Source: Gammaproteobacteria bacterium
Lineage (GTDB): Bacteria > Pseudomonadota > Gammaproteobacteria > JAHELT01
DNA length: 51,995 nt
Assembly (NCBI GenBank): GCA_041623575.1
Contig: JBFJWO010000001.1
Location: forward strand, 1 to 51,995
Reading direction: 5' to 3'
Positions 54 to 16,026 of the stretch are shown one piece after another. Position numbers and translations under genes: made by a program. The number at the start of each line of letters is the position of its first letter. Within the stretch, counting starts at the first letter, position 1. The notes below the pieces were generated by a model. The model was not told where the DNA came from, did not search any database, and saw only the letters and a program-made list of their open reading frames with translations.

Positions 54-2363
54 GTGACCCTGGCGCGCACGACCGCCGGGCGCCTGCCGCTGCGACGTTG
101 GATCAAGGGCGCCGCTGTCGCCTTCGCGATCGGCGTCGTCGGCGTCGCGTTCATGGCCACGACCCCCGGCGACGACTTCGAACGCCGCTTCGGCCTGAGC
201 TGGCTGTTCGAGGTCCGCGGCCCGATCGACGCGCCGGACGATGTCGTGGTCGTCGCGATCGATGCCCGGACCGGCAGCCATCTCGACCTGCCCTCACTGC
301 CAAGGGAGTGGCCACGGTCCATCCACGCCCGCCTGATCCGCAACCTCGAGCGCCTGGGCGCGTCCGTGGTCGTGCTCGACATGGATTTCCAGCGCTCGCG
401 CTCGAGCGCCGAGGACGCCGAACTCGGTGCGGCCATCGAGCGCTCGGGGCGGGTCGTCCTGTTCGAGTCACTCGACGGGAAACGCCTGCCGCTGGGCCAG
501 CTCGGCAACCGGGCGTCCAACGTCGACGAGCAGACCTACGGTTCGGTCTGGGTGGAGCAGTTGATCCCCCCCGTGCCCGTGCTCGCCGAGGCTGCCAACG
601 CGCTGGGTCCGTTTCCGCTGCCGAAACTCAACGAGGCCGTCTACCAGTACTGGGCGTTCAAGGCGACCACCGACGATGCCGCCACGATGCCCGCGGCAGC
701 GCTGCAGCTGCACGCCCTGGATCATTACGAAGTGTTCGCGCGGCTGATGCGAGAGGCGAACATCGCCGAGCTGAAGGATCTCCCGCCGGACGCGCGATCC
801 CTTACGAGGGCGCGCCCGGTGAGCGCGGTCATGCGTACCCTGCGCCGCGCTCTGAAGGACAATCCGCAGGCCGTGGCACGGCTCACCGAAGCGCTGCACG
901 CGACCCGCGACGAACCGCTGTCGCCACGACAGCGGCAACTGATCACCGCCCTCGTCAACCTCTACGCCGGGCCGGACACCCGCTACCTGAATTTCTACGG
1001 GCCGCCCGGCAGCGTGCGGACCCTTCCCTATCACAAGGTCATCGCGGCCGACGAGGCGGGTGACGAGAGCCTGCCCGATCTCGCCGGAAAGATCGTCTTC
1101 GTGGGCTATTCCGACCTCTACGATCCCGGGCAGCCGGATCGGTTCTACACGGTGTTCACCAACGAGGACGGAGTGGACCTGAGCGGCGTGGAGATCGCGG
1201 CCACCGCGCTCGCCAATCTGCTGGACGATCGTGAGCTGCGCCCACCCGACGCCCCGACCTCGATCGCGATCGTGTTGGCTTTCGGCAGTCTTGTCGGCGC
1301 CCTGGTCTACCTGTTGCCGGCGCTGGTTTCCGTTCCTCTCGCGCTCGTCCTGGGCGTGTCCTATGGCGCGGGCGTACAGTACCTGTTCAACGTGGCCGAC
1401 TCGTGGTTGCCGCTCGCCACCCCGCTGCTGCTGCAGTTGCCGCTGGCGCTGTTCCTGGGCCTGCTCGCGCAGTACCTGTTCGAACGACGACAGGAGCGTC
1501 AGTTGACGCAGGCGATCAGCTACTACCTGCCGGGCAGTATCGTCGCCGACCTTACCCGGGCCGGTGGCGTGGATCCGGTCGGTCTCAATCGCTCGGTGCA
1601 CGCCACCTGTCTCGCCACCGACATGGCCGGTTTCACGGGTATCGCCGAGACCATGTCGCCGGAGCACCTGGCCGCGTTCATGAACGAGTACTTCGAAGCG
1701 CTGTCGGCGCCCCTGATCGAACACGGCGTCGACGTCACCGAGTTCCGGGCCGATGCCATCATGTGCGCGTGGACCGGCCTGCAGTCCGACGAGCAACTGC
1801 GTCGCGACGCGATTCTCGCGGCACTCGGCACGGTCGATGCCATCAACCGGTTCAGCGCCGAGACCGGGCGCGGCAACCTGTCGCCGCGCATCGGCCTGGA
1901 AACCGGCGAGGTGTTCGTCGGCCACGCCGGTGGGGGCGGCCATTTCGTCTACAGTATCGTCGGCGCCTGCGCGAACACCGCTTCACGCATCGAAGGCCTG
2001 AACAAGCAGCTCGGCACCCAGTTGCTGGCGAGCGAGGCGGTGGTCGAGGGATTCGACTGGCTGCTGTGCAGGCCTCTGGGATCGTTCCTACCGATCGGCA
2101 ACCAGGCTCCCGTCGCGGTGGTCGAGATCCTGGCGTTGGAAACCGCGGCGTCCGCCGCGCAGCGCAGGCTCTGCCGGCGTTTCGCGCGATCACTGACGTT
2201 GCTGCGCAACGGGCGCCGCAGGCTCGCGGCGGCGCTGCTCGACAGGATTCTGGACGAATTTCCCGATGACGGGCCGGCGCGGTTCTACCGCGAACGCTGC
2301 AGCGCGCAATGGGAGGAACGCCTGCGCCGGGACGGCTTCGTCATTCGCCTGGAGACCAAGTGA
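54..2363 (+). CDS. CHASE2 extracytoplasmic sensor domain fused to a class III adenylate/guanylate cyclase
   Basis: GTG-start ORF of 769 aa. One N-terminal TM helix, then a CHASE2-like region (VVVVAIDARTGS, REWPRSIHARLIRNLERLGASVVVLDMDF, IVFVGYSD). About three TM helices at aa 400-480. C-terminal class III cyclase core (CLATDMAGFTG, EFRADAIMCAW, GLETGEVFVGHAG, GACANTASRIEG). Confidence 0.9.
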   Translation: MTLARTTAGRLPLRRWIKGAAVAFAIGVVGVAFMATTPGDDFERRFGLSWLFEVRGPIDAPDDVVVVAIDARTGSHLDLPSLPREWPRSIHARLIRNLERLGASVVVLDMDFQRSRSSAEDAELGAAIERSGRVVLFESLDGKRLPLGQLGNRASNVDEQTYGSVWVEQLIPPVPVLAEAANALGPFPLPKLNEAVYQYWAFKATTDDAATMPAAALQLHALDHYEVFARLMREANIAELKDLPPDARSLTRARPVSAVMRTLRRALKDNPQAVARLTEALHATRDEPLSPRQRQLITALVNLYAGPDTRYLNFYGPPGSVRTLPYHKVIAADEAGDESLPDLAGKIVFVGYSDLYDPGQPDRFYTVFTNEDGVDLSGVEIAATALANLLDDRELRPPDAPTSIAIVLAFGSLVGALVYLLPALVSVPLALVLGVSYGAGVQYLFNVADSWLPLATPLLLQLPLALFLGLLAQYLFERRQERQLTQAISYYLPGSIVADLTRAGGVDPVGLNRSVHATCLATDMAGFTGIAETMSPEHLAAFMNEYFEALSAPLIEHGVDVTEFRADAIMCAWTGLQSDEQLRRDAILAALGTVDAINRFSAETGRGNLSPRIGLETGEVFVGHAGGGGHFVYSIVGACANTASRIEGLNKQLGTQLLASEAVVEGFDWLLCRPLGSFLPIGNQAPVAVVEILALETAASAAQRRLCRRFARSLTLLRNGRRRLAAALLDRILDEFPDDGPARFYRERCSAQWEERLRRDGFVIRLETK

Positions 2364-2469
2364 GCGCGGCAGCGACGGCGCGTGGTCGACGTGGAGTGTG
2401 GATTCGCAGTGAGAAACCGCGTACATTAGCCCGGGGCCTCTGCTAACAACATAACGACGAGGCAAGTTA

Positions 2470-5400
2470 ATGGAGCGTGCGGGTCGTTCGCGACCGGATC
2501 GCGCCCCGAGCAGGTTCGACAGAACGAGAAGACTGGCACGGACCGGCGTCTTGCTCGCCCCGCTGTACGTGCTCGCCGGCGCCTGTATTTCACCGATCGC
2601 CCTTGCCGAGGACTGCGAGCCCGTGGTCGGCGGGCTGGTCTCCGTCGAAGGCAAGGTCGAGGTCCGGCGCGCCAGCGCCGAGCGCTGGGAAGAGGCCGAC
2701 CTGCAGGAGGTCCTCTGTCAGGGTGACTCGGTGCGTGTCGGCGTCCACAGCCGAGCCGCTGTGGCGCTTATCAACGACGCCGTGCTGAGGATCGATCAAC
2801 GCACGACGTTGCAGTTGGTCGACATCGTCGAGCAACAGGCCGAACCCTCGCTGATCGAGCTCATCTTCGGCGCGTTTCAGACCTTCTTTCGCCAACCCCG
2901 CCTGCTCAGGGTCCACACCCCGTACCTGAACGGTTCGATCGAAGGTACGGAGTTCGTGCTGCGGGTGGTGGACGAGCAGGCCGTGCTGACCGTGCTCGAA
3001 GGGCGCGTGCTGGCGGAAAACGAGCACGGCAGTATCAGCGTCGGGCGCAACCAATCGGTGGCCGCCGAGGCGGGCTCGGCGCCGCAACCCCGTGTCGTGG
3101 TGCGCCCGCGCGAGGCGGCCCAGTGGGCGCTCTATTACCCGCCGCTGCTGGCGGCGCCCGGGGGCGCGCAGCGCCTCGGTTCCGGGCCTCTCGCCGATGC
3201 CTTGCGCGCCAACGACACCCCCGCTGCCCTTGCCGCACTCGAGAACGTTCCGCAGGCCGGGCGCGATGCCGGGTTCTTCGTCCTGCGGGCGGCTCTGTTG
3301 TTGTCGGTCGGCCGCGTCGAGGACGCCCGCGCCGACATCGATCGAGCCCTCGCGCGCGACGCCGGGGCGGGCCTTGCGTTCGCGCTACGCGCTGTTGTCG
3401 CGGTCGTGCAGAACGACCTCGAGCAGGCGCTGGCCGACGGCAATCGGGCGGTCGCTTCCAGCCCCGATTCGGCGGCGGCGCACATCGCGCTCTCCTACGC
3501 CCAACAGGGTGCATTCCAGATCCCGATGGCACGCGAGACGCTGCTTCGCGCGGTGCAGCTGCCGAGCGCGGACGCCCTCGCGTGGACACGGCTAGCCGAA
3601 CTCGAGCTGATGCTCGGGTTTCGCGAACGCGCCGTCGAAGCCGCGGAAAAAGCGGCCTCGCTCGCGCCCGGGCTGGCGCGCACGCAGAGCACGTTGGGTT
3701 TCATAAGGCTCGCCGAGTTCCGCACCGGCGACGCGCAAGCGGCGTTCGAGCGGGCTGTCGCGCTTGACTCGGCCGATCCCCTGGCGCATCTCGGACTGGG
3801 TCTGGCCAGGATCGGCGCGGGTGATCTCGCGCGAGGTCGGGCGGCCATCGAGATCGCGGTCGGCCTGGATGCCTCGAGTGCCTTGCTCCGGGCCTACCTC
3901 GGCAAGGCGTATTTCGAAGAGAAGCGCCCGCCGCTCGACGCCGAGCAGTTCGCCATGGCCAGGGATCTCGACCCTTTCGATCCGACCGCTTTCCTCTATG
4001 ACGGCATCCGCAACCAGACCGAGAACCGGCCGGTGCAGGCGGCGCGCGACATCGACACGTCGATCCGACTCAACGACAACCGCGCCGCCTACCGCGGACG
4101 TCTGCTGCTCGACCAGGACCGTGCGGCGCGCGGCACCAGCCTCGCCCGGGTGCACAAAGACCTCGGTTTCACGCAGCTCGGCATCGACGAGTCGACGCAC
4201 TCCCTTGCACTCGACCCTTCGAACGCGTCCGCGCACCGATTCCTTTCCGACAGCTATCGGGGTATGAGCCGGTTCGAGATCGCACGGGTCAGCGAACTCT
4301 TTCAGGCGCAGCTGCTGCAGGACAGCAACATCAATCCCGTGCAACCCAGCATCTCGGAGAGCAACCTCAATATCGTCGCGCTGGGCGGACCCGCGAGCGC
4401 GGCTTTCAACGAGTTCACGCCGTTGTTCCAGCGCAACGATACCCAGTTCAACGTTACCGCGGTGGGCGGCAGCGAGGGCACCGCCGGCGCCGAAGCGGTC
4501 GTTTCAGGCGTTGCCGACGATTTCTCCTACAGCTTCGGCGCCTTCGCTTACGAGACCGACGGCTGGCGGGCGAACAACGACCTGGAGCAGGACGTCTACA
4601 ACGTCTACCTGCAGGGCGCGATCGGCGCGCGATCGTACTGGCAGGCAGAGCTGATGCATCGCCGATCGCTGAGCGGCGACCTCGTGTTCGGCTTCGACCC
4701 GGACGACCTCGTCGACGATCGGCGGATCGACACCAGTCGATCCAGCGCGCGTGTCGGGTTTCGCCATTCGCCGGACCCCTCGTCGGACCTGCTCGTCTCG
4801 GTCATCCACAGCGAGCGCGACGAAACGCGCAGCGAGACGGATCAGATCGATCCCACGACGCTTTTTGCGGCCGATACCGAGCTGGAGACCGACGGTTCGC
4901 TGGTCGAGATCCAGGCCATACGCAAGGCCGAAAACAGCAACTACATTCTGGGCGCGGCGTACAGCGAGTCGGAAACGACGGGCAGTGACGTGACGGTCAT
5001 CTCCGACGTCGTCATCGGGCCGCTGTTCGAGTTCGACGAGCCCATCGACGAATCGATCGAGCACTCGCGTGCCTACGCCTATGCGAACATCGGGCAACGG
5101 CGCGGGCTCATCTGGACGCTGGGCGCCAGCTACGACGACCTCACGGACGAGCCGATCGAACGATCCGGCTTCAATCCCAAGCTCGGCGTGCGCTGGCTCG
5201 TCGACGACGAAGTGCAGTTGCGCGCGGCGGCGTTTCAGGTGCTCAAGCCGTCGTTGATCAACAATCGCACCATCGAGCCGACCCAGGTCGCCGGTTTCAA
5301 CCAGTTGTTCGACGATGCGACCGGGACCGAGGCGCGTACCCGCGGTATCGGAATCGACGTCGGGTCCGCGACGGACGTGGCGTGGGGGGCGGAGGCGACC

Positions 5401-5934
5401 TGGCGCGATCTCGACGTCCCGGTGGTGCTGGTGACCGAGGACGGCAAGGAGGAGGCGGGCGGCATCGAGCAGGACGAAGAACACCACCGGCTCTATCTCT
5501 ACCTGGCGGCGGGCGAGCAGGTCGCGCTCAGCGCGGAACTGGCCTACGACCGTTTCCGTGAGCCCTCGGCGAGCGCGGACGCGTTTCGCCCGGTGCCGGC
5601 CGAGGTCACCACCACCAGCGTGCCGCTGGGCGTGAGCTACTTTCGCCCGAACGGTCTGTTCGCGAGCCTGCGCGTTACCTATGTCGAGCAGCGGGTCGAG
5701 CGCGCGGCGGACGCGGTGTTCGCACAGGGCAAGGACAGTTTCTCCCTGGTCGACGTGGCGGTCGGATACCGCTTTGCGCAGCGCCGCGGTATCGCGAGCC
5801 TGGGCATCAAGAACCTGACCGACGAGGAATTCGAGTTCCTCGATGACAGTTTTCGCGAATTCAGCGAGGATGCGACCACCGGGCCGTACGCCCCCGAGCA
5901 GATGGTGCTCGGTCGCATTACGCTGAGTTTCTAG
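2470..5934 (+). CDS. Exported FecR-domain / TPR-repeat / C-terminal outer-membrane beta-barrel fusion protein
   Basis: ORF of 1154 aa with a signal-like N-terminus (RRLARTGVLLAPLYVLAGACISPIALA). FecR-type domain (VEGKVEVRRASAERWEEA..GDSVRVG..AAVALINDAVLRIDQRTTLQL..GTEFVLRV..QWALYYPP). Long Ala/Leu-rich TPR-like array at aa ~260-600. The C-terminal ~550 aa show alternating beta-strand patterning, a TonB-dependent-receptor-like tail (LGIKNLTDEEFEF) and a terminal Phe (GRITLSF). Confidence 0.8.
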   Translation: MERAGRSRPDRAPSRFDRTRRLARTGVLLAPLYVLAGACISPIALAEDCEPVVGGLVSVEGKVEVRRASAERWEEADLQEVLCQGDSVRVGVHSRAAVALINDAVLRIDQRTTLQLVDIVEQQAEPSLIELIFGAFQTFFRQPRLLRVHTPYLNGSIEGTEFVLRVVDEQAVLTVLEGRVLAENEHGSISVGRNQSVAAEAGSAPQPRVVVRPREAAQWALYYPPLLAAPGGAQRLGSGPLADALRANDTPAALAALENVPQAGRDAGFFVLRAALLLSVGRVEDARADIDRALARDAGAGLAFALRAVVAVVQNDLEQALADGNRAVASSPDSAAAHIALSYAQQGAFQIPMARETLLRAVQLPSADALAWTRLAELELMLGFRERAVEAAEKAASLAPGLARTQSTLGFIRLAEFRTGDAQAAFERAVALDSADPLAHLGLGLARIGAGDLARGRAAIEIAVGLDASSALLRAYLGKAYFEEKRPPLDAEQFAMARDLDPFDPTAFLYDGIRNQTENRPVQAARDIDTSIRLNDNRAAYRGRLLLDQDRAARGTSLARVHKDLGFTQLGIDESTHSLALDPSNASAHRFLSDSYRGMSRFEIARVSELFQAQLLQDSNINPVQPSISESNLNIVALGGPASAAFNEFTPLFQRNDTQFNVTAVGGSEGTAGAEAVVSGVADDFSYSFGAFAYETDGWRANNDLEQDVYNVYLQGAIGARSYWQAELMHRRSLSGDLVFGFDPDDLVDDRRIDTSRSSARVGFRHSPDPSSDLLVSVIHSERDETRSETDQIDPTTLFAADTELETDGSLVEIQAIRKAENSNYILGAAYSESETTGSDVTVISDVVIGPLFEFDEPIDESIEHSRAYAYANIGQRRGLIWTLGASYDDLTDEPIERSGFNPKLGVRWLVDDEVQLRAAAFQVLKPSLINNRTIEPTQVAGFNQLFDDATGTEARTRGIGIDVGSATDVAWGAEATWRDLDVPVVLVTEDGKEEAGGIEQDEEHHRLYLYLAAGEQVALSAELAYDRFREPSASADAFRPVPAEVTTTSVPLGVSYFRPNGLFASLRVTYVEQRVERAADAVFAQGKDSFSLVDVAVGYRFAQRRGIASLGIKNLTDEEFEFLDDSFREFSEDATTGPYAPEQMVLGRITLSF

Positions 5935-5957
5935 CTCGATGTGGAGGAGTACGACTC

Positions 5958-6797
5958 ATGACTACAAGAACAACGTATACCGGTGCCCTGCTGTGTTTCG
6001 CCCCGCTGGCGTTTGGCCTCGCGCTGCCGGCGAACGCGGACTGCATCGACAGCGATCCGCCGGCGCTCGCGGTCATGTCGATCGATGCCAACAACAGTTG
6101 TTCCGACATCAACGGTTACGGCGGGTGTTTCATCAACGACGGGATCGGCAGTTGCTCGTTCAGCAGCGGTGGCAAATCGTTCACCGTCGACAGCACGCAG
6201 GCGGCTGACGGGCGGGTGCTGTGGAGCGTGCGCGAGGGCAGCGATCTCGGCGTCAAGGTGATGGTCGCCAACGGCGGCGCGCAGGGCAAGAACAACTGTA
6301 GCTACACCTACGCTTTCGATACGTTCTCGGGCCAGGCCGGCGACCTCAAGCCCAACGGCAGCATCCAGAACATCACCGGGGCGTTCTTCTGCACCGACGG
6401 CTCGTTCGCGGCGCCGCCGCCCCCGCCGCCGGTCGCCGAGAACCTGCCCCTGTGCCAGGACCCGATCTCGCAGCCTGACGTCGGGTTTCTCGACGAGACC
6501 GGCATCCGCTGCCCCGCGCCCGATCCGGCGACCGGGCTGGTGCCGCCGGTGGTCGTGTGCAACCTCGAGAAAGACAAGCCCGACTGGGGCGCGACCGACG
6601 GATCGGGGCTGTGCTGTCAGTGCGGGATTCCCGAGGGAACCCAGACCTCGTGCTTCGTGACCCCCGACTCGCCCGAGTGCACGCGGGAGATGACGGTCGA
6701 CCCCACCCAGGCCGTCGAGTTGATGTTCTTCAGGGCCGACGGCGACCCGTGCACCTGGAAGCGTACGTCGCGGGGATGGGAGCAGATCTGCTGGTAG
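5958..6797 (+). CDS. Secreted cysteine-rich protein of unknown function
   Basis: GGAGGA RBS about 8 nt upstream of the ATG, 24 nt after the previous stop. Signal peptide (ALLCFAPLAFGLALPANA/DC). About 16 Cys in the mature part, a PPPPPP linker, and a C-terminal CCQC cluster. Codon usage matches the neighbours. Confidence 0.7.
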   Translation: MTTRTTYTGALLCFAPLAFGLALPANADCIDSDPPALAVMSIDANNSCSDINGYGGCFINDGIGSCSFSSGGKSFTVDSTQAADGRVLWSVREGSDLGVKVMVANGGAQGKNNCSYTYAFDTFSGQAGDLKPNGSIQNITGAFFCTDGSFAAPPPPPPVAENLPLCQDPISQPDVGFLDETGIRCPAPDPATGLVPPVVVCNLEKDKPDWGATDGSGLCCQCGIPEGTQTSCFVTPDSPECTREMTVDPTQAVELMFFRADGDPCTWKRTSRGWEQICW

Positions 6798-6866
6798 TTC
6801 GTTTTCCCGGATGGCGGTCAGCCCGGGCGCACAGGCGCGCGGGCCGGCCGGTTCGTCCGGCTCGGA

Positions 6867-8150
6867 TCAGGGGTAGTCGCGCTGGCTCTCGCCGGTGTAC
6901 AGCTGCCGCGGGCGGCCGATACGCAGTTCCGGGTCCTGCATCATCTCCATCCAGTGCGCGATCCATCCGACCGTGCGCGCCATCGCGAAAATCACCGTGA
7001 ACATGCTGAGCGGGATGCCCATCGCGCGCAGGATCACGCCCGAGTAGAAATCGACGTTCGGGTAGAGCTTGCGCTCGATGAAGTAGTCGTCCTCGAGCGC
7101 CACCTGCTCGAGCTTGCGTGCCAGCTCGAACAGCGGCTGGTTCTCCGCACCCAGTTCGTCGAGCAGGCCGTTGGCGACCTGGCGGATGATGCGCGCGCGC
7201 GGGTCGTAGTTCTTGTACACCCGGTGGCCGAATCCCATCAGCCGGAAAGTGTCGTTCTTGTCCTTGGCACGCGCGATGTACTTGTCCAGCGGTTCGCCCG
7301 ACGCCAGCATGTTCTCGAGCATGCGGATCACCGCCTCGTTGGCACCGCCGTGCGAGGGGCCCCACAGCGAGGCGATGCCGGCGGCGATGCTGGCGAACGG
7401 GTTGGCACCCGAGCTGCTCGCCAGGCGTACGGTCGAGGTGCTGGCGTTCTGCTCGTGGTCGGCGTGCAGGATGAGGATGATCTCAAGCGCGCGCACGAAA
7501 GTCGGGTTCGACTGGTAGCTCTCCGCGGGCACGGCGAACATCATGCGCAGGAAGTTCTCCACGTAGCCGAGCGCGTTCAGCGGGTAGATGAACGGCTGCC
7601 CCAGCGAGTACTTGTAGCTGTCGGCGGCGATGGTCGGCATCTTGGCGATCAGGCGGTGCGCGGAGATCTTGCGGTGTTCCGGGTTGGTGATGTCGGTGGA
7701 GTCGTGATAGAAGGCCGACAACGCCCCCACCGTGCTCACCAGGATGGCCATGGGGTGGGCGTCGTGACGAAACCCCTCGTAAAAGCGACGCACGCCCTCG
7801 TGGACCATGGTGTGGGTGGAAATGGTGCGCTCGAAATCCTCTTTTTCCTTCGGGTTCGGCAACTCGCCGTAGAGCAACAGATAACACACTTCCAGGTAGC
7901 TGCTCTTCTCGGCGAGCTGTTCGATCGGGTAGCCGCGGTAGAGCAGGATGCCCTGATCGCCGTCGATGTAGGTGATGGCGCTGCTGCAGCTCGCGGTGGC
8001 GACGAACCCCGGGTCGTAAGTGAAGTAGCCCAGCTCCGGGTTGAGGCGGCGAATGTCGAAACAGGGATCGCCGTGGGTGCCTTCACGCACGGGCAACTGG
8101 ATCTTCTTGCCCGTGGTGTCATCGATCACCGTGACGGTCTTGTCAGTCAT
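6867..8150 (-). CDS. gltA: Citrate synthase (type II, hexameric Gram-negative type)
   Basis: Full-length 427 aa with an unmistakable GltA sequence ([82 protein letters not shown]). Confidence 0.97.
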
Positions 8151-8413: not shown

Positions 8414-9016
8414 ATGCAAGAACTGACCCCCAGACAGCAGGAAATCCTCGCCCACATCCGCGACTACCTGGAGCGCAACGGCGTACCGCCCACCCGTGCC
8501 GAGCTGGCGCGGGCGATCGGGGTACGCTCGGCCAACGCCGCCGAGGAGCATTTGCGGGCCCTGGCGCGCAAGGGCGCCATCGAACTCATGCCGGGCACTT
8601 CCCGCGGTATCCGTCTGGTCGCCGAAAGCGGGCTGGCGGTGATCGGCCGGGTGGCGGCGGGTGCTCCGGTGCTGGCGGAGCAGAACATCGAGCAGTACCT
8701 GGCGGTGGAAGGGCAGGTATTCCGCCCCCGGGCTCACTACCTGCTGCGCGTGCACGGCATGAGCATGCGCGATGCGGGAATCCTGGACGGCGACCTGCTG
8801 GCGGTGCACCACTCGCCCGAGGCCCGCAACGGCCAGATCGTGGTTGCGCGCATCGAGGACGAGGTGACCGTGAAGCGGTTCGAGCGCCAGGGCGGGCACC
8901 GGGTGCTGTTGCATCCGGAGAACCCCGAATTCGACGTCATCGAGGTCGATCTGCGCGCCCGGGCGCTGCACATCGAAGGGATCGGCGTGGGCGTGGTGCG
9001 CAACCATGTCGCTTGA
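8414..9016 (+). CDS. lexA: LexA repressor / S24 autopeptidase
   Basis: 200 aa. Winged-HTH N-terminus ([29 protein letters not shown]), Ala-Gly cleavage site (GRVAAGAP), catalytic Ser ([10 protein letters not shown]) and Lys (VTVKRF). Confidence 0.95.
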
Positions 9017-9650
9017 TGCCCTGTTGCACAGCCGCCAGTTGTGGCGAGGCGGCGAGCTGTCTGCCCCGGTCCCGGCCATCCCCACCGGCTTTCGCGAACT
9101 GGATGCCTTGCTGCCGGGCGGCGGCTGGCCGGACAGCGGCCTGGTGGAACTGTTGCCGGCGCGCGCCGGAATCGGCGAGTTGCGGCTGCTGATGCCGGTG
9201 CTGGCCCGGCTCAGCCGCGCCGAGCGCTGGATCGCCTGGGTAGCGCCGCCTTACCTGCCTTACGCGCCCGCCCTGGCGGCCGCCGGGGTGGAACTGTCCC
9301 GCATCCTGATGATCCACCCGCGCGGCGCCCAGGACGGCCTGTGGGCGCTGGAGCAGGCGTTGCGGGCGGGGACCTGCGGCGCGGTCCTGGCCTGGCCCGA
9401 GGTCCTCGACGGGCGGGCCATGCGGCGTCTGCAACTGGCGGCCGAGGCCGGCAACAGCCTGGGCTTCCTGTTCCGCTCGACCAGGGTCTCGCGCCAGCCT
9501 TCCACCGCGCAGTTGCGCCTGCAACTCGACGGCATTGCCGAGGGCGGCGAGGACGCCCGCCATCTCTGCGTGGACATCCTCAAGCGTCGCGGCGGCTGGC
9601 CGGTCGGGCCGGTCACCGTGGCATTCAGGCAGGGCGCCCGGGCGCACTGA
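9006..9650 (+). CDS. imuA: ImuA, RecA/SulA-like translesion-synthesis cassette protein
   Basis: 214 aa. Typical ImuA N-terminus ([32 protein letters not shown]). Overlaps the lexA stop by 11 nt and lies upstream of imuB-dnaE2. Confidence 0.85.
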
Positions 9651-9683
9651 GCCGAAGGTGCCTGGCGTCGCGGAGAAAACGGC

Positions 9684-10151
9684 ATGCCTGCGCGATTCCT
9701 CAACGCAACGGTGATCCTGCCGGCCCACGACCTGCCCGCTACCGCCCGTTATTACCGGGAGAAACTCGGGTTCTCGATCGAGATCCTCTGGGAGGACCCG
9801 CCCTACGGGGTGGCGGTGCGCGGGCAGGCGGTGATCGAGTTCGGCCAGCAACGGTTTCCGGATACCGCCAGGGGCGTGTGTTACGTCCACGTCGGCGACG
9901 TCGACGAAGTCTACCGGGAGTTCGCCGAGGCGGGCGCGCACTTCGTCACGGCGCCTGCCGACCGTGCTTACGGCTGCCGGGATTTCCGGGTCCGGGACAA
10001 CAACGGCAACCTGCTGATCGTCGGCAGCCCGTTGCCCGGCAGCCCCCTGTCGGAGGGCGTCATCGCAGCCCTTCCCGATACACGGGAGCGTCAGGGCGAG
10101 GATCGTGCCGGGCCGCCCGACGCCGGTGCCCGGCGGCCGGACTGCCGTTGA
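9684..10151 (+). CDS. VOC-family (glyoxalase / bleomycin-resistance-like) protein
   Basis: 155 aa. Resembles the bleomycin-resistance/glyoxalase fold (ATVILPAHDLPATARYYREKLGF..VAVRGQAVIEF..CYVHVGDVDEVYREF..DRAYGCRDFRVRDNNGNLLIVG). The C-terminal ~35 aa are low complexity. Confidence 0.75.
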   Translation: MPARFLNATVILPAHDLPATARYYREKLGFSIEILWEDPPYGVAVRGQAVIEFGQQRFPDTARGVCYVHVGDVDEVYREFAEAGAHFVTAPADRAYGCRDFRVRDNNGNLLIVGSPLPGSPLSEGVIAALPDTRERQGEDRAGPPDAGARRPDCR

Positions 10152-10178
10152 GCCGCGTGTCGCTCCGCCGCTCTGCCC

Positions 10179-11612
10179 ATGCTCTGGTTGTGCCTGCATT
10201 TCCCCCTGTTGCCGCTGGAGGTGCTGGCGCGCGCCGGGCAGGCCGGCCCGGCAGTGGTGAGCGCCGAGAGCGGCGGGCGCGAACGGGTAGAGGTCTGCAA
10301 CGAGGCCGCCGCCCGCCTCGGGGTGTGCCCGGGCCTGCGCATGAGTTCGGTCTGGGCACTGGCGCCGGAGTCGACGCACTACCCGCGTAACAGTGCGCGT
10401 GAGGCGCGAGCCCTGACCCGCCTGGCCGCCTGGTGCGGCCAGTTCAGCGACTTCGTCAGCCTGCGCGCGCCCGATGCGGTGTTGCTGGAGGTGCGGGGCA
10501 GTCTGAGGCTGTTCGGCGGGTTGGCGCGGCTGCTGGCGCTGCTGGACGGGGCGATCGCGGAACTGGGCTACACCGCGCAGCGGGGCGTGGCACCGACCCC
10601 GCTGGCGGCCAGCCTGCTGGCGCGTGCCGGGGGCGGGATCGCCAGCGGCACGGGCTGGGAGGGGCAACTGGCGAAGATCCCGCTCGACCGACTGGAACAG
10701 CCGCCCGCCGTGCTCGAGGCATTGCAGGAAATGGGGATCGGTACCGTCGGCGCCTGTCGTCGCCTGCCGCGCTCCGGGCTGGCGCAGCGTTTCGGTCCCT
10801 CGCTGCTGCAGTACCTCGATCGCCTGTGCGGGCTCGCCGCCCACCCGGTAGCGCGCTTCGAGGCGCCGGCCCGTTATGCCGAGCGGATTGCGCTGCCGGC
10901 CGAGAGCACCTCCGTGCAGGCGCTGGGGTTCGCCTTGCGGCGGCTGATTTTCGAGTTCTGCGGCATCCTCACCGGGCACGCCTCCGGCGTGCAGACCTTC
11001 GAGGTGGAACTGGTCCACGAACGCGTGGCCGCGACCCTGCTCGGGTTCGCCCTGGTATCGCCCAGCCGCGACCCGGCGCACCTGCTGATGCTGGTGCGTG
11101 AGAAGCTCGAACGCACCACGCTGGACGCGCCGGTGGTCGAGGTCGGGCTGCGCGCCGGGCGCTTCGAGTCGCTGCTGGCGGCGAGCGAAGACCTGTTCGA
11201 CGCACGCGGCGCGGCCCACGACGGCCTGTTCCTCGATCGCCTGCGCGTACGCCTCGGCGGCGAGGCCGTGGGCAGTGTGCGCTGTTTCGCCGAGCACCGC
11301 CCGGAGTACGCCTGGGGCAAGGCCGACCCGGATGCCTCGCGCACCGCGCAGGTCCCCGCTTACCCGGTCCGCCTGGAGCGACCCTTGTGGCTGCTGTCGC
11401 AACCTCTCGCGCTGGCCACCCGCGACGGGCTGCCCTGCTACGAAGGCGAGCTGGTCCTCTACGACGGCCCGGAGCGCATCGAGAGCGGGTGGTGGGACGG
11501 GCGCGACGTGACCCGCGACTACTTTCTCGCCGGCAACGCGCAGGGTGCGAGTTTCTGGGTGTTCCAGGAACTGCGCCGGCGCGAATGGTTCCTGCACGGG
11601 ATCTTTGCCTGA
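10179..11612 (+). CDS. imuB: ImuB, Y-family DNA polymerase-like protein of the mutagenesis cassette
   Basis: 477 aa. Canonical ImuB start (MLWLCLHFPLLPLEVL). Sits immediately upstream of dnaE2. Confidence 0.85.
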   Translation: MLWLCLHFPLLPLEVLARAGQAGPAVVSAESGGRERVEVCNEAAARLGVCPGLRMSSVWALAPESTHYPRNSAREARALTRLAAWCGQFSDFVSLRAPDAVLLEVRGSLRLFGGLARLLALLDGAIAELGYTAQRGVAPTPLAASLLARAGGGIASGTGWEGQLAKIPLDRLEQPPAVLEALQEMGIGTVGACRRLPRSGLAQRFGPSLLQYLDRLCGLAAHPVARFEAPARYAERIALPAESTSVQALGFALRRLIFEFCGILTGHASGVQTFEVELVHERVAATLLGFALVSPSRDPAHLLMLVREKLERTTLDAPVVEVGLRAGRFESLLAASEDLFDARGAAHDGLFLDRLRVRLGGEAVGSVRCFAEHRPEYAWGKADPDASRTAQVPAYPVRLERPLWLLSQPLALATRDGLPCYEGELVLYDGPERIESGWWDGRDVTRDYFLAGNAQGASFWVFQELRRREWFLHGIFA

Positions 11613-11628
11613 CCTTGCCCCGGCCGCG

Positions 11629-14600
11629 ATGGAACTCCCGGACTACGCCGAGCTGCACGCCGTTTCGAACTTCACCTTCCTGCGTGGCGCCTCGCACCCC
11701 GAGGAACTGGTGAAGCGCGCCGGTGCGCTCGGCTACCGGGCGTTCGCGCTCACCGACGAATGCTCGCTGGCGGGTATAGTGCGCGCGCACACCGCGGCGC
11801 GCGACTGCGGCCTGCACCTGATCGTCGGCACCGAGCTGGTGTTCGAGCCCGGACTGCGGCTGGTGTTGCTGGCGGTCAATCGCCACGGCTACGGGCGGAT
11901 AGCGTCGCTCATCACACGTGCCCGGCGCGCGGCCGCCAAGGGCGCTTATCGCCTGTGCCGCGAGGACCTGTGCAATGCCCCCGGAGAGCTGGCCGATTGC
12001 CTGGTCCTGTGGCTGCCCGGCGATCCCGCCGACGTCGCCACCGGGCGCTGGCTCGCGCAGGCCTTTGGCGGGCGTGTGTGGCTCGCCGTGGAGCTGACGC
12101 GCGACGGCACGGAGCGCCGGCGCCTGGCCGTGCTCACCCGTCTCGGCGGGAAATGCTCGCTGCCGCTGGTGGCGGCCGGCGACGTGCACATGCACCGCCG
12201 CGGCCGGCGTGCCGTGCAGGACACGCTGACGGCGATCCGCCTCAAGTCCACGGTGGCGGCGGCCGGCCTCGCGTTGCACGCCAACGGCGAGCGTCACCTG
12301 CGCGCCCGCGATTACCTTGCCCGGCTCTACCCACCGGAGCTGCTGGCGGAGACCGTGCGCGTGGCCGCCCGTTGTACGTTCTCGCTCGAGGAGTTGCGCT
12401 ACGAGTATCCCGCCGAGCTGGTGCCCGCCGGCAAGACCCCCGGCGGCTGGTTGCGGGAGTTGACCCTGGCCGGCGCCCGCCGCCGCTGGCCCGGAGGTGT
12501 GCCGCCGCGGGTCGAGGCGCAGCTGCAGCACGAACTGGCGCTGATCGGCGAGCTGGCTTACGAGCCCTATTTCCTGACTGTGCACGACCTCGTGGCCTTC
12601 GCCCGCGCGCACGACATCCTCTGCCAGGGCCGCGGCTCGGCGGCCAACTCGGCGGTGTGTTACTGCCTCGGGATCACCGAGGTCGACCCCTCGCGCATGA
12701 GCCTGCTGTTCGAGCGGTTCGTGTCGCGCGAGCGCAACGAGCCTCCCGACATCGACGTGGATTTCGAGCACGCCCGGCGCGAGGAAGTCATCCAGTACGT
12801 CTATCGCAAGTACGGGCGCGAGCGCGCTGCCCTGGCTGCCACGGTGATCACCTACCGCCTGCGCAGCGCCGTGCGTGACACCGGCAAGGCGCTGGGCCTG
12901 TCGCTGGAGCAGGTCGACCGCCTGGCCAAGAACCTGGCCTGGTGGGACGGGCGCCGGGTCGACGAGGAGCGCCTGCGCGAGTGCGGGCTGGACCCGGGCA
13001 GCCCGCTGGTGCAGCGGGTGGTGAGCCTCGCCACCCAGCTGGTCGGCTTCCCGCGCCACCTCTCGCAGCACGTCGGCGGTTTCGTGATCTCCCGCGGCCC
13101 GTTGAGCGAGCTGGTGCCGATCGAAAACGCCGCCATGCCCGAGCGCACCGTCATCCAGTGGGACAAGGACGACCTCGACGCGCTCGGCCTGCTGAAAGTC
13201 GACTGCCTGGCGCTCGGCATGCTGAACGCCATCCACAAGGCCTTCGACCTGCTCGGCGAAGTGCGCGGGCAGGCGTACAGCCTGGCGAGCATCCCGCCCG
13301 AGGACCCGCAGGTGTACGCCATGATCCAGAAAGCCGACACGGTGGGCGTGTTCCAGATCGAGTCGCGGGCGCAGATGTCGATGTTGCCGCGGCTCAGGCC
13401 GGAGAACTTCTACGACCTCGTGATCGAAGTGGCCATCGTGCGTCCCGGCCCCATCCAGGGCGACATGGTGCATCCCTACCTGCGCCGCCGCCAGGGCCTG
13501 GAGCCCGTCGACTACCCCAGCGAGGAGGTCCGCGAGGTCCTGGAGCGGACCCTGGGCGTGCCGATCTTCCAGGAGCAGGTGATCAAGCTGGCGATGGTCG
13601 CGGCCGGCTTCAGCCCCGGCGAGGCCGACCGGCTGCGCCGATCCATGGCGGCCTGGCGGCGCAACGGCGAGCTTGCGCAATTCGAGCAGCGCCTCATCGA
13701 CGGCATGCGCCGGCGCGGCTACGGGGTCGAGTTCGCCGAGCGGATCTTCCGCCAGATCCAGGGGTTCGGCGAGTACGGTTTTCCCGAGTCGCACGCCGCC
13801 AGCTTCGCGCTGCTGGTGTACGTCTCGGCCTGGCTGAAGTGCCACGAGCCGGCGGCCTTCACCTGTGCGCTGCTCAATGCCCAGCCCATGGGGTTCTATG
13901 CCCCGGCGCAACTGGTGCAGGACGCGCGCCGTCACGGCGTCGAGGTGCTCGCCGTGGACGTCACTCACAGTCGCTGGGAGAGCAGCCTGGAGCCGCGTGG
14001 TGGAGCCCAACCGGCGTTGCGCCTGGGGCTGGACCGGGTCAAGGGACTGTCGCGGGAGGCCGGCGAGCGGGTCTTGCGGGCCCGCTCCGGCGCGCCGTTT
14101 CGCGACCTGAACGATCTCGCGGCGCGCGCCGGTCTGCGCCGCAACGACCTGGCCGCGCTGGCCAATGCCGATGCTTTCTCCGCGCTCTCCGGCCACCGCC
14201 ACCAGGCGCGCTGGGAGCTGGCGGGGGTGGAGCCGCCCGCGGGGCTGTTGCCCACGCCGGCACCGGGTGGCGAGGCACCGGTGGCCTTACGCCTGCCGAG
14301 CGAGGGCGAGGAGGTGGCCGCGGACTACGCCCATCTCGGCCTGACCTTGCGGCGCCACCCGTTGGCGCTGCTGCGCCCGCGCTTCGACAGGGTCCACACG
14401 GCCGCGGGGCTCTGGGATCTCGCTGACGGCGCGCGCGCCGAGACCGTGGGGCTGGTCACCTGTCGCCAGCGCCCGGGTACCGCCACCGGCGTATTGTTCC
14501 TGACGCTCGAGGACGAGACCGGGGTGATCAACGTGATCGTGTGGAACCGGGTCGCCGAGCGTTACCGGCGGGCGGTGCTGGCCGCGAGCCTGCTCGGCGT

Positions 14601-14712
14601 GCGCGGGCACGTTCAGCGCGAAGGGGACGTGTTGCACGTGGTCGCACGCCATCTCCGGGACCACACCGCGGAGCTCGGCGGCCTCACCGCCGCCTCGCGG
14701 GATTTTCACTGA
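11629..14712 (+). CDS. dnaE2: Error-prone DNA polymerase III alpha-like subunit DnaE2 (ImuC)
   Basis: An in-frame ATG at 11629 gives the canonical DnaE2 start (MELPDYAELHAVSNFTFLRGASHPEEL). PHP and Pol III alpha core motifs are present (GRGSAANSAVCYCLGIT, DIDVDFE, FQIESRAQ). The tracked ORF start at 11545 overlaps imuB and is probably an artefactual extension. Confidence 0.93.
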   Translation: MELPDYAELHAVSNFTFLRGASHPEELVKRAGALGYRAFALTDECSLAGIVRAHTAARDCGLHLIVGTELVFEPGLRLVLLAVNRHGYGRIASLITRARRAAAKGAYRLCREDLCNAPGELADCLVLWLPGDPADVATGRWLAQAFGGRVWLAVELTRDGTERRRLAVLTRLGGKCSLPLVAAGDVHMHRRGRRAVQDTLTAIRLKSTVAAAGLALHANGERHLRARDYLARLYPPELLAETVRVAARCTFSLEELRYEYPAELVPAGKTPGGWLRELTLAGARRRWPGGVPPRVEAQLQHELALIGELAYEPYFLTVHDLVAFARAHDILCQGRGSAANSAVCYCLGITEVDPSRMSLLFERFVSRERNEPPDIDVDFEHARREEVIQYVYRKYGRERAALAATVITYRLRSAVRDTGKALGLSLEQVDRLAKNLAWWDGRRVDEERLRECGLDPGSPLVQRVVSLATQLVGFPRHLSQHVGGFVISRGPLSELVPIENAAMPERTVIQWDKDDLDALGLLKVDCLALGMLNAIHKAFDLLGEVRGQAYSLASIPPEDPQVYAMIQKADTVGVFQIESRAQMSMLPRLRPENFYDLVIEVAIVRPGPIQGDMVHPYLRRRQGLEPVDYPSEEVREVLERTLGVPIFQEQVIKLAMVAAGFSPGEADRLRRSMAAWRRNGELAQFEQRLIDGMRRRGYGVEFAERIFRQIQGFGEYGFPESHAASFALLVYVSAWLKCHEPAAFTCALLNAQPMGFYAPAQLVQDARRHGVEVLAVDVTHSRWESSLEPRGGAQPALRLGLDRVKGLSREAGERVLRARSGAPFRDLNDLAARAGLRRNDLAALANADAFSALSGHRHQARWELAGVEPPAGLLPTPAPGGEAPVALRLPSEGEEVAADYAHLGLTLRRHPLALLRPRFDRVHTAAGLWDLADGARAETVGLVTCRQRPGTATGVLFLTLEDETGVINVIVWNRVAERYRRAVLAASLLGVRGHVQREGDVLHVVARHLRDHTAELGGLTAASRDFH

Positions 14713-15914
14713 GCGCCGTGAAACTCGATGGCGATGAGGGTCACGTCGTCGCCGTTCTCGACGCCGCCGCAGAAACCGCCCAGCGCCTCGCGCAGGCTGG
14801 CCACCAGCTCCCCCACCGCCAGCTCGCGCTGCGCGGCGAGGAACTCGTGCAGGCGCTCCTCGCCGAAGTGCTCGCCGCCGCGGTTCTCCCACTCCAAAAT
14901 GCCGTCGGTATACATGAACACCTTGTCCCCGCGCGCCAGACGATAGCCGTACTCGTCGAAGTGGTTGGCGGTGTTCAGGATACCGAGCGGCAGGTTCTTG
15001 CTTCGCAGTATCACCAGCGCCCCGCCGTCGGCCGGGGCAACGACGAGCGGGGGGTGTCCGCCGGCGCTCATCGTGAGCGCGCCGCGCGTGTCGATCTGCA
15101 GTGCCATGCCGGTCATGAAATGCCCGCCCGGGATGGCGGGTTTGAGCACGGCGTCCAGGCGCCGCAGGACTTCGCAGGGCGACACGGACTTGCCGATGTG
15201 CGCGATCCCCATGCTGGCCATCACCGTGATGAACGCCGAGGCGATGCCGTGCCCCGTCGCGTCGCCGAGGAAGACCTCCTGCCCGCCGCCCGGGCGCTCG
15301 CCGAAGTGGTAGTAGTCGCCGGACACGAGCCCGCAGGGCTGGATCCACACCGCCGCGCTGAGGTGGTCGGGGCACGGCGGCTTGGCCAGCATCTCGTGCT
15401 GAACCTCGGCGGCGAAACGCAGGTCGCTCTCGAGGATCTGCTTCTGTTGCATCAGCGTGCGTTGCAGCGCCTCCAGCGCCTGTTGCCGGCGACTGGCCTC
15501 GGCGTGGTAGCGCACCCGTGCATGCAGCTCGACGGCGTCGGGAAACTTGACCAGGTAGTCCGACACGCCCTCGGCGAAGCAGCGCGCCTTCTCCTGTGCC
15601 GAATCGACGCTCGAGAGCATGATCACCGGCGCCCCCGCGAACTCCTCGCTCTCGCGCAGGTGTTTGACCAGGCCGAGGCCGTGGCAGGCGTCCATGCGCA
15701 CGTCGACGAGGAACACGTCGGGGCGGAACTCGCGCGCGCAGGCGAGTGCCCGCATCGGGTGCACGCAGCCCATCAGCTCGATCTGCGCCTGGTCCTCGAA
15801 CAGGTCGGCGATGAGGTCCAGCGCGTCCTGGTCGTCGTCGACGTGCAGCACGCGAATGGCATCGAGCACGACCGGCTGCTCGAGCTTCGATAGCGGCGCG
15901 GCGAGCTGGTTCAT
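14706..15914 (-). CDS. Response regulator receiver fused to a PP2C/SpoIIE-type Ser/Thr phosphatase (RsbU-like)
   Basis: Receiver domain (RVLHVDDDQDALDLI..PDVFLVDVRMD..VIMLSS..DYLVKF), then a SpoIIE/PP2C core (SGDYYHF..FLGDATGHGIASA..GGHPP..MYTDGILE). Start placed at the internal ATG 15914 (MNQLAAPL); the upstream 49 codons are Arg/Pro-rich. Confidence 0.85.
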   Translation of the reverse strand: MNQLAAPLSKLEQPVVLDAIRVLHVDDDQDALDLIADLFEDQAQIELMGCVHPMRALACAREFRPDVFLVDVRMDACHGLGLVKHLRESEEFAGAPVIMLSSVDSAQEKARCFAEGVSDYLVKFPDAVELHARVRYHAEASRRQQALEALQRTLMQQKQILESDLRFAAEVQHEMLAKPPCPDHLSAAVWIQPCGLVSGDYYHFGERPGGGQEVFLGDATGHGIASAFITVMASMGIAHIGKSVSPCEVLRRLDAVLKPAIPGGHFMTGMALQIDTRGALTMSAGGHPPLVVAPADGGALVILRSKNLPLGILNTANHFDEYGYRLARGDKVFMYTDGILEWENRGGEHFGEERLHEFLAAQRELAVGELVASLREALGGFCGGVENGDDVTLIAIEFHGAQ

Positions 15915-16026
15915 AAGACTCTGCGACGGGTGCTGATGGCAGGTTATCGGGCGCCGCGCGGGCATCTTTAGGGTGTCCGGCCCCTGGCCGGCCGGCGGCG
16001 GCGCACGCCGGTACGGACCGTCGCGG

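Follow-up and report, generated by a model that had tools for sequence, protein, structure and literature searches.

What nucleotide does a CHASE2-linked class III cyclase make when glutamate stands where adenylate cyclases carry the lysine that reads adenine? The question is raised by the first gene in the window, by which we mean the whole stretch of 51,995 nucleotides analyzed here (contig JBFJWO010000001.1 of the gammaproteobacterial metagenome-assembled genome, or MAG, GCA_041623575.1). The gene has a GTG start codon and is complete, but its promoter is missing because the contig starts 53 nt upstream. A 769-aa record in a protein collection (P0002) is 99% identical to its product, which is laid out as follows.

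54..2363, + strand: complete gene for a CHASE2-TM-class III cyclase-C-terminal extension protein of 769 aa (translated ORF)
174..1301, + strand: periplasmic CHASE2 sensor domain, residues 41-416 (Pfam PF05226, E = 4.2e-27)
1251..1487, + strand: membrane helices after CHASE2, residues ~400-478 (AF2/DSSP helices 400-420, 423-448 and 455-489; hydrophobic sequence)
1491..1583, + strand: linker, a putative cyclase-transducer-like element, residues 480-510, motif AISYYLPGSIVADL
1584..2150, + strand: class III nucleotidyl cyclase catalytic domain, residues 511-699 (PF00211)
2151..2360, + strand: C-terminal helical extension, residues 700-769, motif DGPARFYRERC (AF2 helices 701-718, 722-735 and 740-750)

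In the AF2 model of the full-length single chain (mean pLDDT 88), predicted helices at residues 13-35 and 400-420 flank the CHASE2 domain. The PF00211 match covers residues 517-651 (E = 1.2e-10, 41.7 bits against a cut-off of 21.9), sequence matches of the catalytic domain in the PDB include 2w01 (2.8e-15) and 3r5g (3.3e-13), and target-normalized TM-scores from Foldseek reach 0.81 to CyaB and 0.77 to Cya2, confirming a class III cyclase fold for the modeled domain. The Foldseek ranking was rejected as a discriminator between guanylate and adenylate cyclases, OaPAC, CyaB, Cya2 and CyaC all scoring about 1e-9 to 1e-10, and it speaks to fold only. The linker AISYYLPGSIVADL aligns with AFSQYLSPALVERL of CyaK from S. 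meliloti and with LFGQYVPPELVDEM of a paralog on contig C8 of the same MAG, and it probably acts as a cyclase-transducer-like element. Tails like the C-terminal extension are carried by CyaK and by the MAG's paralogs on C8 and C393, and the activity of Cya2 requires that enzyme's own C-terminal extension (PMC5995499).

To number the active site, we aligned the cyclase to Cya2 (PDB 2w01) with HMMER (E = 2.8e-15) and used the published Cya2 residue list, D448/E488/D492/G562/N569/R573 (PMC6005667). On this alignment D523 corresponds to D448, E563 to E488, D567 to D492, S634 to G562, N641 to N569 and R645 to R573. Conservation was counted in 121 homologs with 53-99% identity over their C-terminal parts, which were aligned with MAFFT.

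1620..1622, + strand: Asp523, first metal-binding Asp (CLATDMAGF), aligned with Cya2 D448; 121/121 homologs
1740..1742, + strand: Glu563, where adenylate cyclases have the Lys that reads adenine and guanylate cyclases have Glu, codon GAG; 121/121
1746..1748, + strand: Arg565, two residues past Glu563; Arg in 107/121, His in 14/121
1752..1754, + strand: Asp567, second metal-binding Asp, aligned with Cya2 D492; 121/121
1887..1889, + strand: Arg612 (RIGLETG), phosphate-binding Arg; 121/121
1947..1949, + strand: Val632, position -2 of Ser634; Val in 106/121, Ala in 12/121
1953..1955, + strand: Ser634, second base-specifying position, codon AGT; Ser in 118/121, Thr in 3/121
1974..1988, + strand: Asn641...Arg645 (ANTASR), transition-state-stabilizing pair, aligned with Cya2 N569/R573; both 121/121

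A preliminary description of this DNA had placed Glu and Ser, not Lys and Asp, at the specificity positions by eye, and the HMMER alignment agrees: 1740-1742 encodes the Glu of TEFRADAIM and 1953-1955 the Ser of FVYSIVG. The stretch that it had taken as the cyclase core, 1584-2150, coincides exactly with the catalytic domain, and the metal-binding Asp and Asn/Arg residues that it had called intact (D523, D567, N641 and R645) are each found in every homolog. With pocket and catalytic residues fixed across the 121 homologs, the family looks like one of active enzymes whose pocket is under selection. It is highly improbable that the protein is a catalytically dead pseudo-enzyme serving only as a scaffold: the Pfam score of 41.7 bits is weak, and Ala638 occupies a position where 119 of the 121 family members have Asp, but Cya2 itself has Ala at the equivalent position (GVVGAQVN), none of the six canonical catalytic residues is missing or varies within the family, and the ORF is intact with a coding-type GC3 of 0.86.

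If the enzyme is active, which base does it read? Guanylate cyclases combine Glu with Cys, Ser, Thr, His, Ala or Gly, and the contact of Glu with N1/N2 is the dominant determinant (PMC7384201, PMC4215837); the second position is Asp or Thr in adenylate cyclases and Cys, Ser, Thr, Gly, Ala or His in guanylate cyclases (PMC4215837). The adenine-reading Lys is absent from all 121 family members. Glu563 aligns with the Lys of both CyaK and CyaB, and in the BLASTP alignment to CyaK, E563 pairs with the Lys in IDKYIGD, and S634 with the Ser in FDYSALGD. Cya2, with Glu at this position, is strongly GTP-specific (PMC6005667), and its E488K replacement turns the guanylate cyclase into an adenylate cyclase (PMC5995499). 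On these comparisons of sequence, the window cyclase is probably an envelope-signal-gated receptor cyclase of the inner membrane that makes 3',5'-cGMP from GTP. Asp523 and Asp567 would hold two metal ions in each active site, Arg612, Asn641 and Arg645 would bind phosphate and ribose and stabilize the transition state, guanine N1-H/N2-H2 would be hydrogen-bonded to Glu563, and the small hydroxyl of Ser634 would lie near O6. The guanylate-cyclase interpretation of the preliminary description is thus partly supported, although its view of Glu/Ser as the pair of bacterial guanylate cyclases needs amending. Glu/Ser is a recognized guanylate cyclase pair, also present in protist enzymes, but it is of the eukaryotic type; among the proven bacterial enzymes, Cya2 has Glu/Gly, and the motifs of XC_0250 and the R. 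centenum enzyme depart from the norm.

Counting against a guanylate cyclase are sister groups with D/R, D/S and E/R pairs and the missing basic residue at position -2. A basic residue there, which supports the Glu, is a feature of the guanylate cyclase class: eukaryotic enzymes have Arg, Cya2 has Lys in the alignment to 2w01, and the engineered guanylate cyclase bPGC carries D265K. The Lys-type relatives CyaB, CyaK and bPAC have Asp at -2, whereas the window cyclase has Val632. The position of Arg565 is usually filled in class III enzymes by a hydrophobic residue, followed by Gly, and it co-varies with the type of pair, being Arg or His in the E/S and E/R groups and Val or Ile in the D/R group. 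Arg565 may pair electrostatically with Glu563, and Arg or His at this position may substitute for the basic -2 residue. Val in place of an acidic -2 residue, together with Arg/His two residues past the Glu, would fit a pocket that has been remodeled to suit Glu.

Arg565 can also be viewed as neutralizing Glu563 or turning it away, in which case the window cyclase would be an adenylate cyclase or a dual ATP/GTP cyclase with selectivity drawn from catalysis or pocket shape, like other odd-pair class III enzymes. The absence of the basic -2 residue would fit such an enzyme, as would the leakiness of engineered Glu variants: Glu in an adenylate cyclase scaffold gave partial or dual specificity in Ma1120 KDA->EGY and in bPGC, which has a GTP:ATP preference of about 7:1. 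We nevertheless regard an adenylate or dual cyclase as unlikely. The Lys that reads adenine N1 is missing from 121/121 homologs and almost missing from 150 representatives of the wider clade, Cya2 with Glu is strongly GTP-specific until E488K reverses it, and no natural class III enzyme known to us combines Glu at the Lys position with proven adenylate cyclase activity. Ordinary Lys/Thr cyclases elsewhere in the MAG already provide for cAMP synthesis; one of them is CyaK-like (53% identity over the catalytic domain). Database annotation does label family members 'adenylate cyclase', but this is automatic annotation only, and the label is probably wrong.

Is the window cyclase then simply the gammaproteobacterial counterpart of Cya2? 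It belongs to a long-branched clade of CHASE2 cyclases comprising at least 150 clusters at 50% identity. In the maximum-likelihood tree Cya2 groups with CyaB and Lys/Thr cyclases, and the window clade stands apart on a branch of 1.46 with support of 100/99. An AU test rejects the grouping of the window clade with Cya2 (p = 0.005), a result to be read with the long branch of Cya2 in mind and with the group having been named after the tree was seen. Judged by these trees, the window cyclase is no ortholog of Cya2, and for that reason function is not transferable by descent; from the separate clades and the AU rejection, Glu apparently arose independently in the two lineages. CyaK falls beside the Lys/Thr paralog that the MAG carries on C8 and not beside the window cyclase, and a further paralog on C393 has a Glu/Gly pair. 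Carriers of the family number more than 100 proteobacterial species representatives, including methanotrophs, purple sulfur bacteria and Rhodocyclaceae, and the E/S pair was read by regular expression at 73 of 80 species-representative genome loci, the remaining seven falling outside the pattern with their pair unread.

The adenine-reading Lys is almost absent from the 150 representatives of the clade, in which the pairs D/R, E/S, D/S, E/G, E/R, N/R and D/T occur. This unusual plasticity at both positions would suit a clade that is diversifying its base pockets, with the window cyclase making a pyrimidine cNMP, cIMP or another nucleotide, and class III-related cyclases making cCMP and cUMP exist in Pycsar systems (PMC10249747). 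For the window cyclase such a product is very unlikely: guanine pockets are classically built from Glu and a small polar residue, the protein has the make-up of a housekeeping envelope sensor, and the neighbors described below are ordinary CNB-domain proteins (Crp-like, STAS-CNB) rather than phage-defense effectors. A broader view is possible but tentative, namely that the deep-branching CHASE2 clade of at least 150 clusters dropped the Lys independently of Cya2 and makes cGMP or another non-cAMP nucleotide, which, in a pathway that pairs the cyclases with NsrA-like outer-membrane receptors, gates CNB glutaminases and SulP anion transporters. Across the clade an acidic residue at position 1 would read N1/N2 and Ser, Thr, Arg or Gly at position 2 would face O6; in the largest subgroup this would include the triad Asp...Glu-Tyr-Arg, whose members co-vary. 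If this were true, it would amount to a widespread envelope-to-metabolism cGMP pathway, as yet undescribed in bacteria. A literature search, whose coverage did not extend to Ryu et al. 2015 and Rauch et al. 2008, found no assay of any clade member.

What would control the cyclase, and what would read its product? The gene is followed on the same strand by two others.

2470..5934, + strand: NsrA-like exported protein of 1154 aa with signal peptide, FecR, TPR array and plug-less TonB-receptor-like β-barrel (Pfam)
5958..6797, + strand: Cys-rich secreted protein of 279 aa, 23 nt downstream of the NsrA-like gene

The NsrA-like protein matches S. meliloti NsrA in BLASTP at 2e-16 over FecR and TPR and at 6e-4 at the barrel end, and its gene accompanies the cyclase at about 65 of 80 species loci and on all four metagenome contigs. 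The 279-aa protein matches no Pfam family and is poorly conserved, being present at 5 of 80 loci by tblastn; its gene is possibly co-transcribed with the upstream gene, and a promoter and terminator scan of 2250-7000 gave nothing above shuffled expectation. By analogy with S. meliloti NsrA-CyaK, the NsrA-like protein, with periplasmic FecR and TPR parts and an outer-membrane β-barrel, would perceive an envelope or external cue and pass it to the periplasmic CHASE2 domain, from which the signal would travel by way of membrane helices and transducer-like linker to a catalytic domain that presumably works as a homodimer; class III cyclases form their active sites in a head-to-tail dimer.

The preliminary description had proposed a search of the genome for cNMP-binding effectors, and this was fruitful: at least 17 matches to PF00027 turned up in the MAG, and in relatives such genes are clustered beside the module. 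There, the density of cNMP-binding genes is about 50 per Mb near the module and 3.4 per Mb genome-wide, an enrichment of about 15-fold, and the neighbors encode glutaminase-STAS-CNB, SulP-STAS-CNB, Crp-like and CNB-PP2C proteins, which are the candidate readers of the cyclic nucleotide; a linked glutaminase-STAS-CNB gene occurs, for example, in Methylotetracoccus oryzae. Glutaminase-STAS-CNB and SulP-STAS-CNB genes were not found in this MAG, whose assembly is 76% complete and whose contig begins with the cyclase gene. In the linked CNB domains the phosphate-binding cassette (PBC) reads RSA (25), RTA (10) or RAA (3). E. coli CRP, a cAMP receptor, also carries RSA, so R[ST]A motifs do not separate cGMP from cAMP, and their occurrence in cAMP receptors would fit the adenylate or dual cyclase considered above. 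The best PDB matches of one glutaminase CNB domain are PKG (3e-15) and then PKA RI (2e-9), an order that is suggestive of cGMP without discriminating.

Characterized bacterial cGMP enzymes are very few: Cya2, the R. centenum Gcy proteins and XC_0250. The last two were rejected as comparators on account of atypical catalytic motifs, in which Ala fills a specifying position and Asn/Arg is lacking. Cya2 is still without a known receptor (PMC10187061). If the family of the window cyclase makes cGMP, it would be a second, independently evolved lineage of CHASE2 guanylate cyclases, and it offers what Cya2 lacks, an upstream partner in the NsrA-like outer-membrane receptor, together with candidate downstream receptors in the glutaminase-STAS-CNB, SulP-STAS-CNB and Crp-like proteins. 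Cultured carriers, among them Thiocapsa roseopersicina DSM 217, Methylotetracoccus oryzae C50C1, Methyloversatilis sp. and Hyphomicrobium sp., make the family directly testable.

How does the window cyclase compare with known systems? Cya2 (sll0646 of Synechocystis sp. PCC 6803) is a CHASE2-linked guanylate cyclase with the same order of CHASE2, membrane segment, cyclase domain and C-terminal extension (PMC6005667, PMC5995499), and it is the best match among solved structures (2w01, E = 2.8e-15, 25-28% identity). Both enzymes have Glu at the Lys position and Ala at the G-[DN]-x-x-N position. They differ at the second position, where the Ser of the window cyclase departs from the Glu/Gly pair of Cya2, at -2, where Lys of Cya2 faces Val632, and at the canonical Arg of the RIG motif: R612 is equivalent to Arg571/Arg545 of CYG12/RhGC, whereas Cya2 has Gly there and uses Arg450 instead (PMC6005667). 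The eukaryotic guanylate cyclases sGC, GC-A, RhGC and CYG12, of the Glu/Cys and Glu/Ser types, follow the same pocket logic, Glu for N1/N2 with a small polar second residue, and have the canonical Arg, Asn and Arg in common with the window cyclase. The sequence relation to GC-A, RhGC and sGC is distant (E = 1e-5 to 1e-2), the window cyclase is without the Arg that eukaryotic enzymes have at -2, and its input domain is a bacterial CHASE2, with no heme, kinase-homology or rhodopsin domain.

The closest characterized module is NsrA-CyaK of S. meliloti, in which a FecR-TPR-β-barrel protein of about 1150-1190 aa likewise accompanies a CHASE2 cyclase. We reached CyaK through its FecR partner; a plasmid search with the cyclase gave weak catalytic-domain matches and an unannotated pSymA locus. 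CyaK aligns with the window cyclase over CHASE2, linker and catalytic domain (1e-18, BLASTP), and gene order differs, nsrA lying directly upstream of cyaK on pSymB whereas in the window the cyclase gene precedes the NsrA-like gene. NsrA senses an external protein signal that leads to cAMP synthesis by the CHASE2 cyclases CyaK, CyaD1 and CyaD2 (PMC7529298, PMC13001267), and the output is read by Clr, responsive to cAMP and cGMP alike (PMC10127613). That this homologous module works through cAMP is a point in favor of an adenylate or dual cyclase in the window. CyaK, however, is a Lys/Ser enzyme with Asp at -2, whereas the window cyclase is Glu/Ser with Val at -2, so that between the window cyclase and its nearest characterized module the natural Lys-to-Glu difference falls on the key residue.

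The cyclase gene lies complete at the opening of the window, and its domains and the catalytic span named in the preliminary description fall as follows:

54-2363, forward strand: complete cyclase ORF by translation, GTG start, 769 aa
residues 41-416, forward strand: CHASE2 domain (Pfam, E = 4e-27)
residues 517-651, forward strand: class III cyclase domain (Pfam, E = 1.2e-10)
1584-2150, forward strand: the span named earlier, exactly residues 511-699

The AlphaFold2 model, made with 69 family sequences as input (mean pLDDT 88), exhibits a membrane helix at the N terminus, followed by the CHASE2 fold and three more helices (400-489); a short linker then leads to the cyclase fold (513-695) and a C-terminal extension of three helices. 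Class III cyclases were the sole Foldseek matches in the PDB, with target-normalised TM-scores of 0.81 for P. aeruginosa CyaB and 0.77 for Cya2, the Synechocystis CHASE2 guanylate cyclase (GC), which has the top sequence identity among them (25-28%).

Does the enzyme carry the residues of a GC? The two specificity positions are Glu563 (GAG, 1740-1742) and Ser634 (AGT, 1953-1955), as had been claimed. Cya2 (2w01) is the closest solved relative by sequence (HMMER, E = 2.8e-15), and its published residues Asp448, Glu488, Asp492, Gly562, Asn569 and Arg573 (PMC6005667) align, with exactly matching offsets, with D523, E563, D567, S634, N641 and R645 of the window cyclase. In S. meliloti CyaK, Glu563 corresponds to the Lys of IDKYIGD and Ser634 to the Ser of FDYSALGD. 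Because the Cya2 offsets and the CyaK alignment agree, the earlier alignment by eye was correct; the Glu/Ser pair is confirmed, and the metal Asp and Asn/Arg residues are intact.

The pair is a family trait and not a one-sequence accident, since in 121 proteins, all CHASE2 plus cyclase and 53-99% identical in the C-terminal (cyclase) part, the first position is always Glu and the second is Ser (118) or Thr (3). The five catalytic residues are invariant throughout this set, and a dead enzyme is accordingly very improbable. The motifs around the pair, CLATDMxGF, VTEF[RH]ADxIMCAWT and RIGLExG..YVGHAGGGGHFVYSIVGDCANTASRIEGLNK, are nearly fixed in the same proteins. When one genome per prokaryote species was scanned with a pattern, 119 relatives emerged; E/S was read in 73 of the 80 loci retained, the remaining seven lying outside the search pattern with their pair unread. 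Residue 638 (1965-1967) is Ala in the window cyclase and Asp in 119 of the 121 family members (IVGDCAN to IVGACAN), a substitution that is probably harmless, as Cya2 also has Ala there.

The second position of GCs may be C, S, T, H, A or G (PMC4215837). In the RhGC-GTP structure the main guanine-specific contact is the bond from Glu to N1/N2, the second residue being less conserved and perhaps merely shaping the pocket (PMC7384201), and the single change E488K makes Cya2 an adenylate cyclase (AC) (PMC5995499). By this logic the window cyclase would have a GC-type pocket. Its Glu/Ser is nearer to the eukaryotic consensus than the Glu/Gly of Cya2; the suggestion that Glu/Ser is the pair of bona fide bacterial GCs does not hold, as XC_0250 and the R. 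centenum GC are atypical at catalytic motifs. Eukaryotic GCs have Arg two residues before the second position (-2). Cya2 has Lys there (RTKYG), whereas the window cyclase has Val632 and thus lacks this third, basic determinant. The family mostly has Val (106 of 121) or Ala (12) at -2, unlike the Lys-type relatives CyaB, CyaK and bPAC, which have Asp, so that it has lost the acid without gaining a base. Two residues after the Glu, Arg or His is fixed (Arg565 in the window cyclase) and co-varies with Glu-type pairs across the wider clade, and we propose Arg565 as a partner of Glu563. The engineered GC bPGC required K197E/D265K/T267G, and Glu in AC scaffolds gives leaky enzymes (bPGC, ~7:1 GTP:ATP; Ma1120 EGY, dual specificity). 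Set against the predicted GC-type pocket, an AC or dual-specificity enzyme is a possible but distinctly less probable reading.

HMMER, run all against library, recovered 547 cluster representatives at E < 1e-30. In the best 150 of these, at 33-54% identity and nearly all CHASE2 cyclases of ~750 aa, the pairs (residue at the Lys position of adenine-reading enzymes/second position) were D/R 55, E/S 25, D/S 12, E/G 8, D/T 7, E/R 5, D/A 5 and N/R 5, with Lys almost absent. For the E/S window cyclase, some other nucleotide product is improbable. The largest subgroup (55 of the best 150; P0158-P0269) has a co-varying triad, SDV[VI]GD ... H[YF]EYRAVGD, in which the Lys position is occupied by Asp and Glu-Tyr-Arg replaces x-Tyr-Asp/Thr, giving a charge-swapped pocket. 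In both a quick and a careful maximum-likelihood tree these proteins fall into a single clade, set off by a long branch (1.46 changes per site; 100/99 support in the careful tree), while Cya2 groups with CyaB (Lys/Thr), and CyaK with the Lys/Thr CHASE2 paralog on contig C8 of the window's own MAG. The window protein is in a supported E/S subclade (98/94) nested in a 17-row group (100/96) that also includes E/G, E/R and E/A members. Orthology to Cya2 was rejected by this separate placement and by the AU test of Cya2 joined to the window clade (p = 0.005, with Cya2 on a long branch and the group named after the tree was seen). The Glu of the window clade thus appears to have arisen independently of that of Cya2, and orthology offers no basis for transferring function.

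A 1154-aa partner protein, encoded 106 nt downstream of the cyclase, combines a signal peptide with a FecR domain, TPR repeats and a plug-less TonB-receptor-like barrel (Pfam). On S. meliloti pSymB the gene immediately preceding cyaK encodes the same type. This ~1190-aa protein, annotated 'FecR domain-containing protein', is NsrA, an outer-membrane receptor; by way of it, a protein signal activates CHASE2 cyclases, namely CyaK and CyaD1/D2 (PMC7529298, PMC13001267). The window partner matches NsrA at 2e-16 over FecR and TPR, with a second aligned stretch at the barrel end. Its gene adjoins the cyclase in all four metagenome contigs examined and in ~65 of the 80 species loci, in variable orientation, the loci without it being mostly short contigs. 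Two additional NsrA-like FecR-TPR-barrel genes are on short MAG contigs (C299 and C141). Further along the window are:

5958-6797: third gene, separated by 23 nt from the end of the NsrA-like one; its secreted, Cys-rich product of 279 aa includes a poly-Pro stretch
8414-14709: LexA gene, ImuA-like ORF, ImuB-type (IMS family) gene and DnaE2-type error-prone polymerase, an SOS mutagenesis cassette
14706-16058, reverse strand: response-regulator receiver fused to a SpoIIE/PP2C phosphatase

The third gene matches no Pfam family and is present in merely 5 of the 80 loci. In one relative (L029) an SOS mutagenesis cassette is likewise a few kb from the cyclase.

In the MAG (4.7 Mb, 571 contigs, 70% GC, 76% complete), 14 matches to class III cyclases scored above cut-off, and the search for cNMP-binding (CNB) effectors proposed in the preliminary description yielded at least 17 that did so. 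Its other cyclases are Q/T (4 copies), K/T (2), R/x (4), one E/A, probably dead, and one E/G, another CHASE2 cyclase from the non-Lys clade, whose pair is Cya2-like (G000:C393:3842-5164, G000 being this MAG). The four Gln/Thr paralogs (contigs C117, C73, C7 and C98; QFQGD ... YTVHGD) have a non-Lys pair as well. With an HMM from the MAG's own CNB domains, CNB ORFs were found clustered near the E/S cyclase in 40 of the 80 species loci, or ~50 per Mb; the genome-wide density is 3.4 per Mb (77 matches in 22.7 Mb, five cultured carriers). A ~620-aa glutaminase-STAS-CNB protein is beside the cyclase/NsrA-like module in ~20 loci (Methylotetracoccus oryzae, L047:10304-12184; L090:10458-12344), and SulP-STAS-CNB transporters (~740 aa), a 355-aa CNB protein and Crp-like regulators also recur. 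In a Methylobacter MAG (L030), the neighbors of the cyclase module are a CNB-SpoIIE/PP2C protein and partner-switching genes of the STAS and HATPase_c_2 types. Recurrence of the glutaminase and SulP types, which were not found in the window's MAG (76% complete, with the cyclase upstream flank off the contig), suggests that the cyclic nucleotide controls glutamine hydrolysis and anion transport. The linked phosphate-binding cassettes are mainly R[ST]A, and one glutaminase CNB domain has PKG as its best PDB match, features that would be compatible with cGMP but are not diagnostic.

With some reserve, we favor as the most likely mechanism a GTP-preferring cyclase gated by an envelope signal, in a module of the NsrA/CHASE2 type. 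The window contributes the structure of the clade, the apparently independent origin of its Glu, an NsrA-like partner and the linkage to CNB effectors. The window cyclase is Cya2-like as a predicted GC but is not its ortholog, and its module is alike in kind to NsrA-CyaK, although the cyclase is not of the Lys type.
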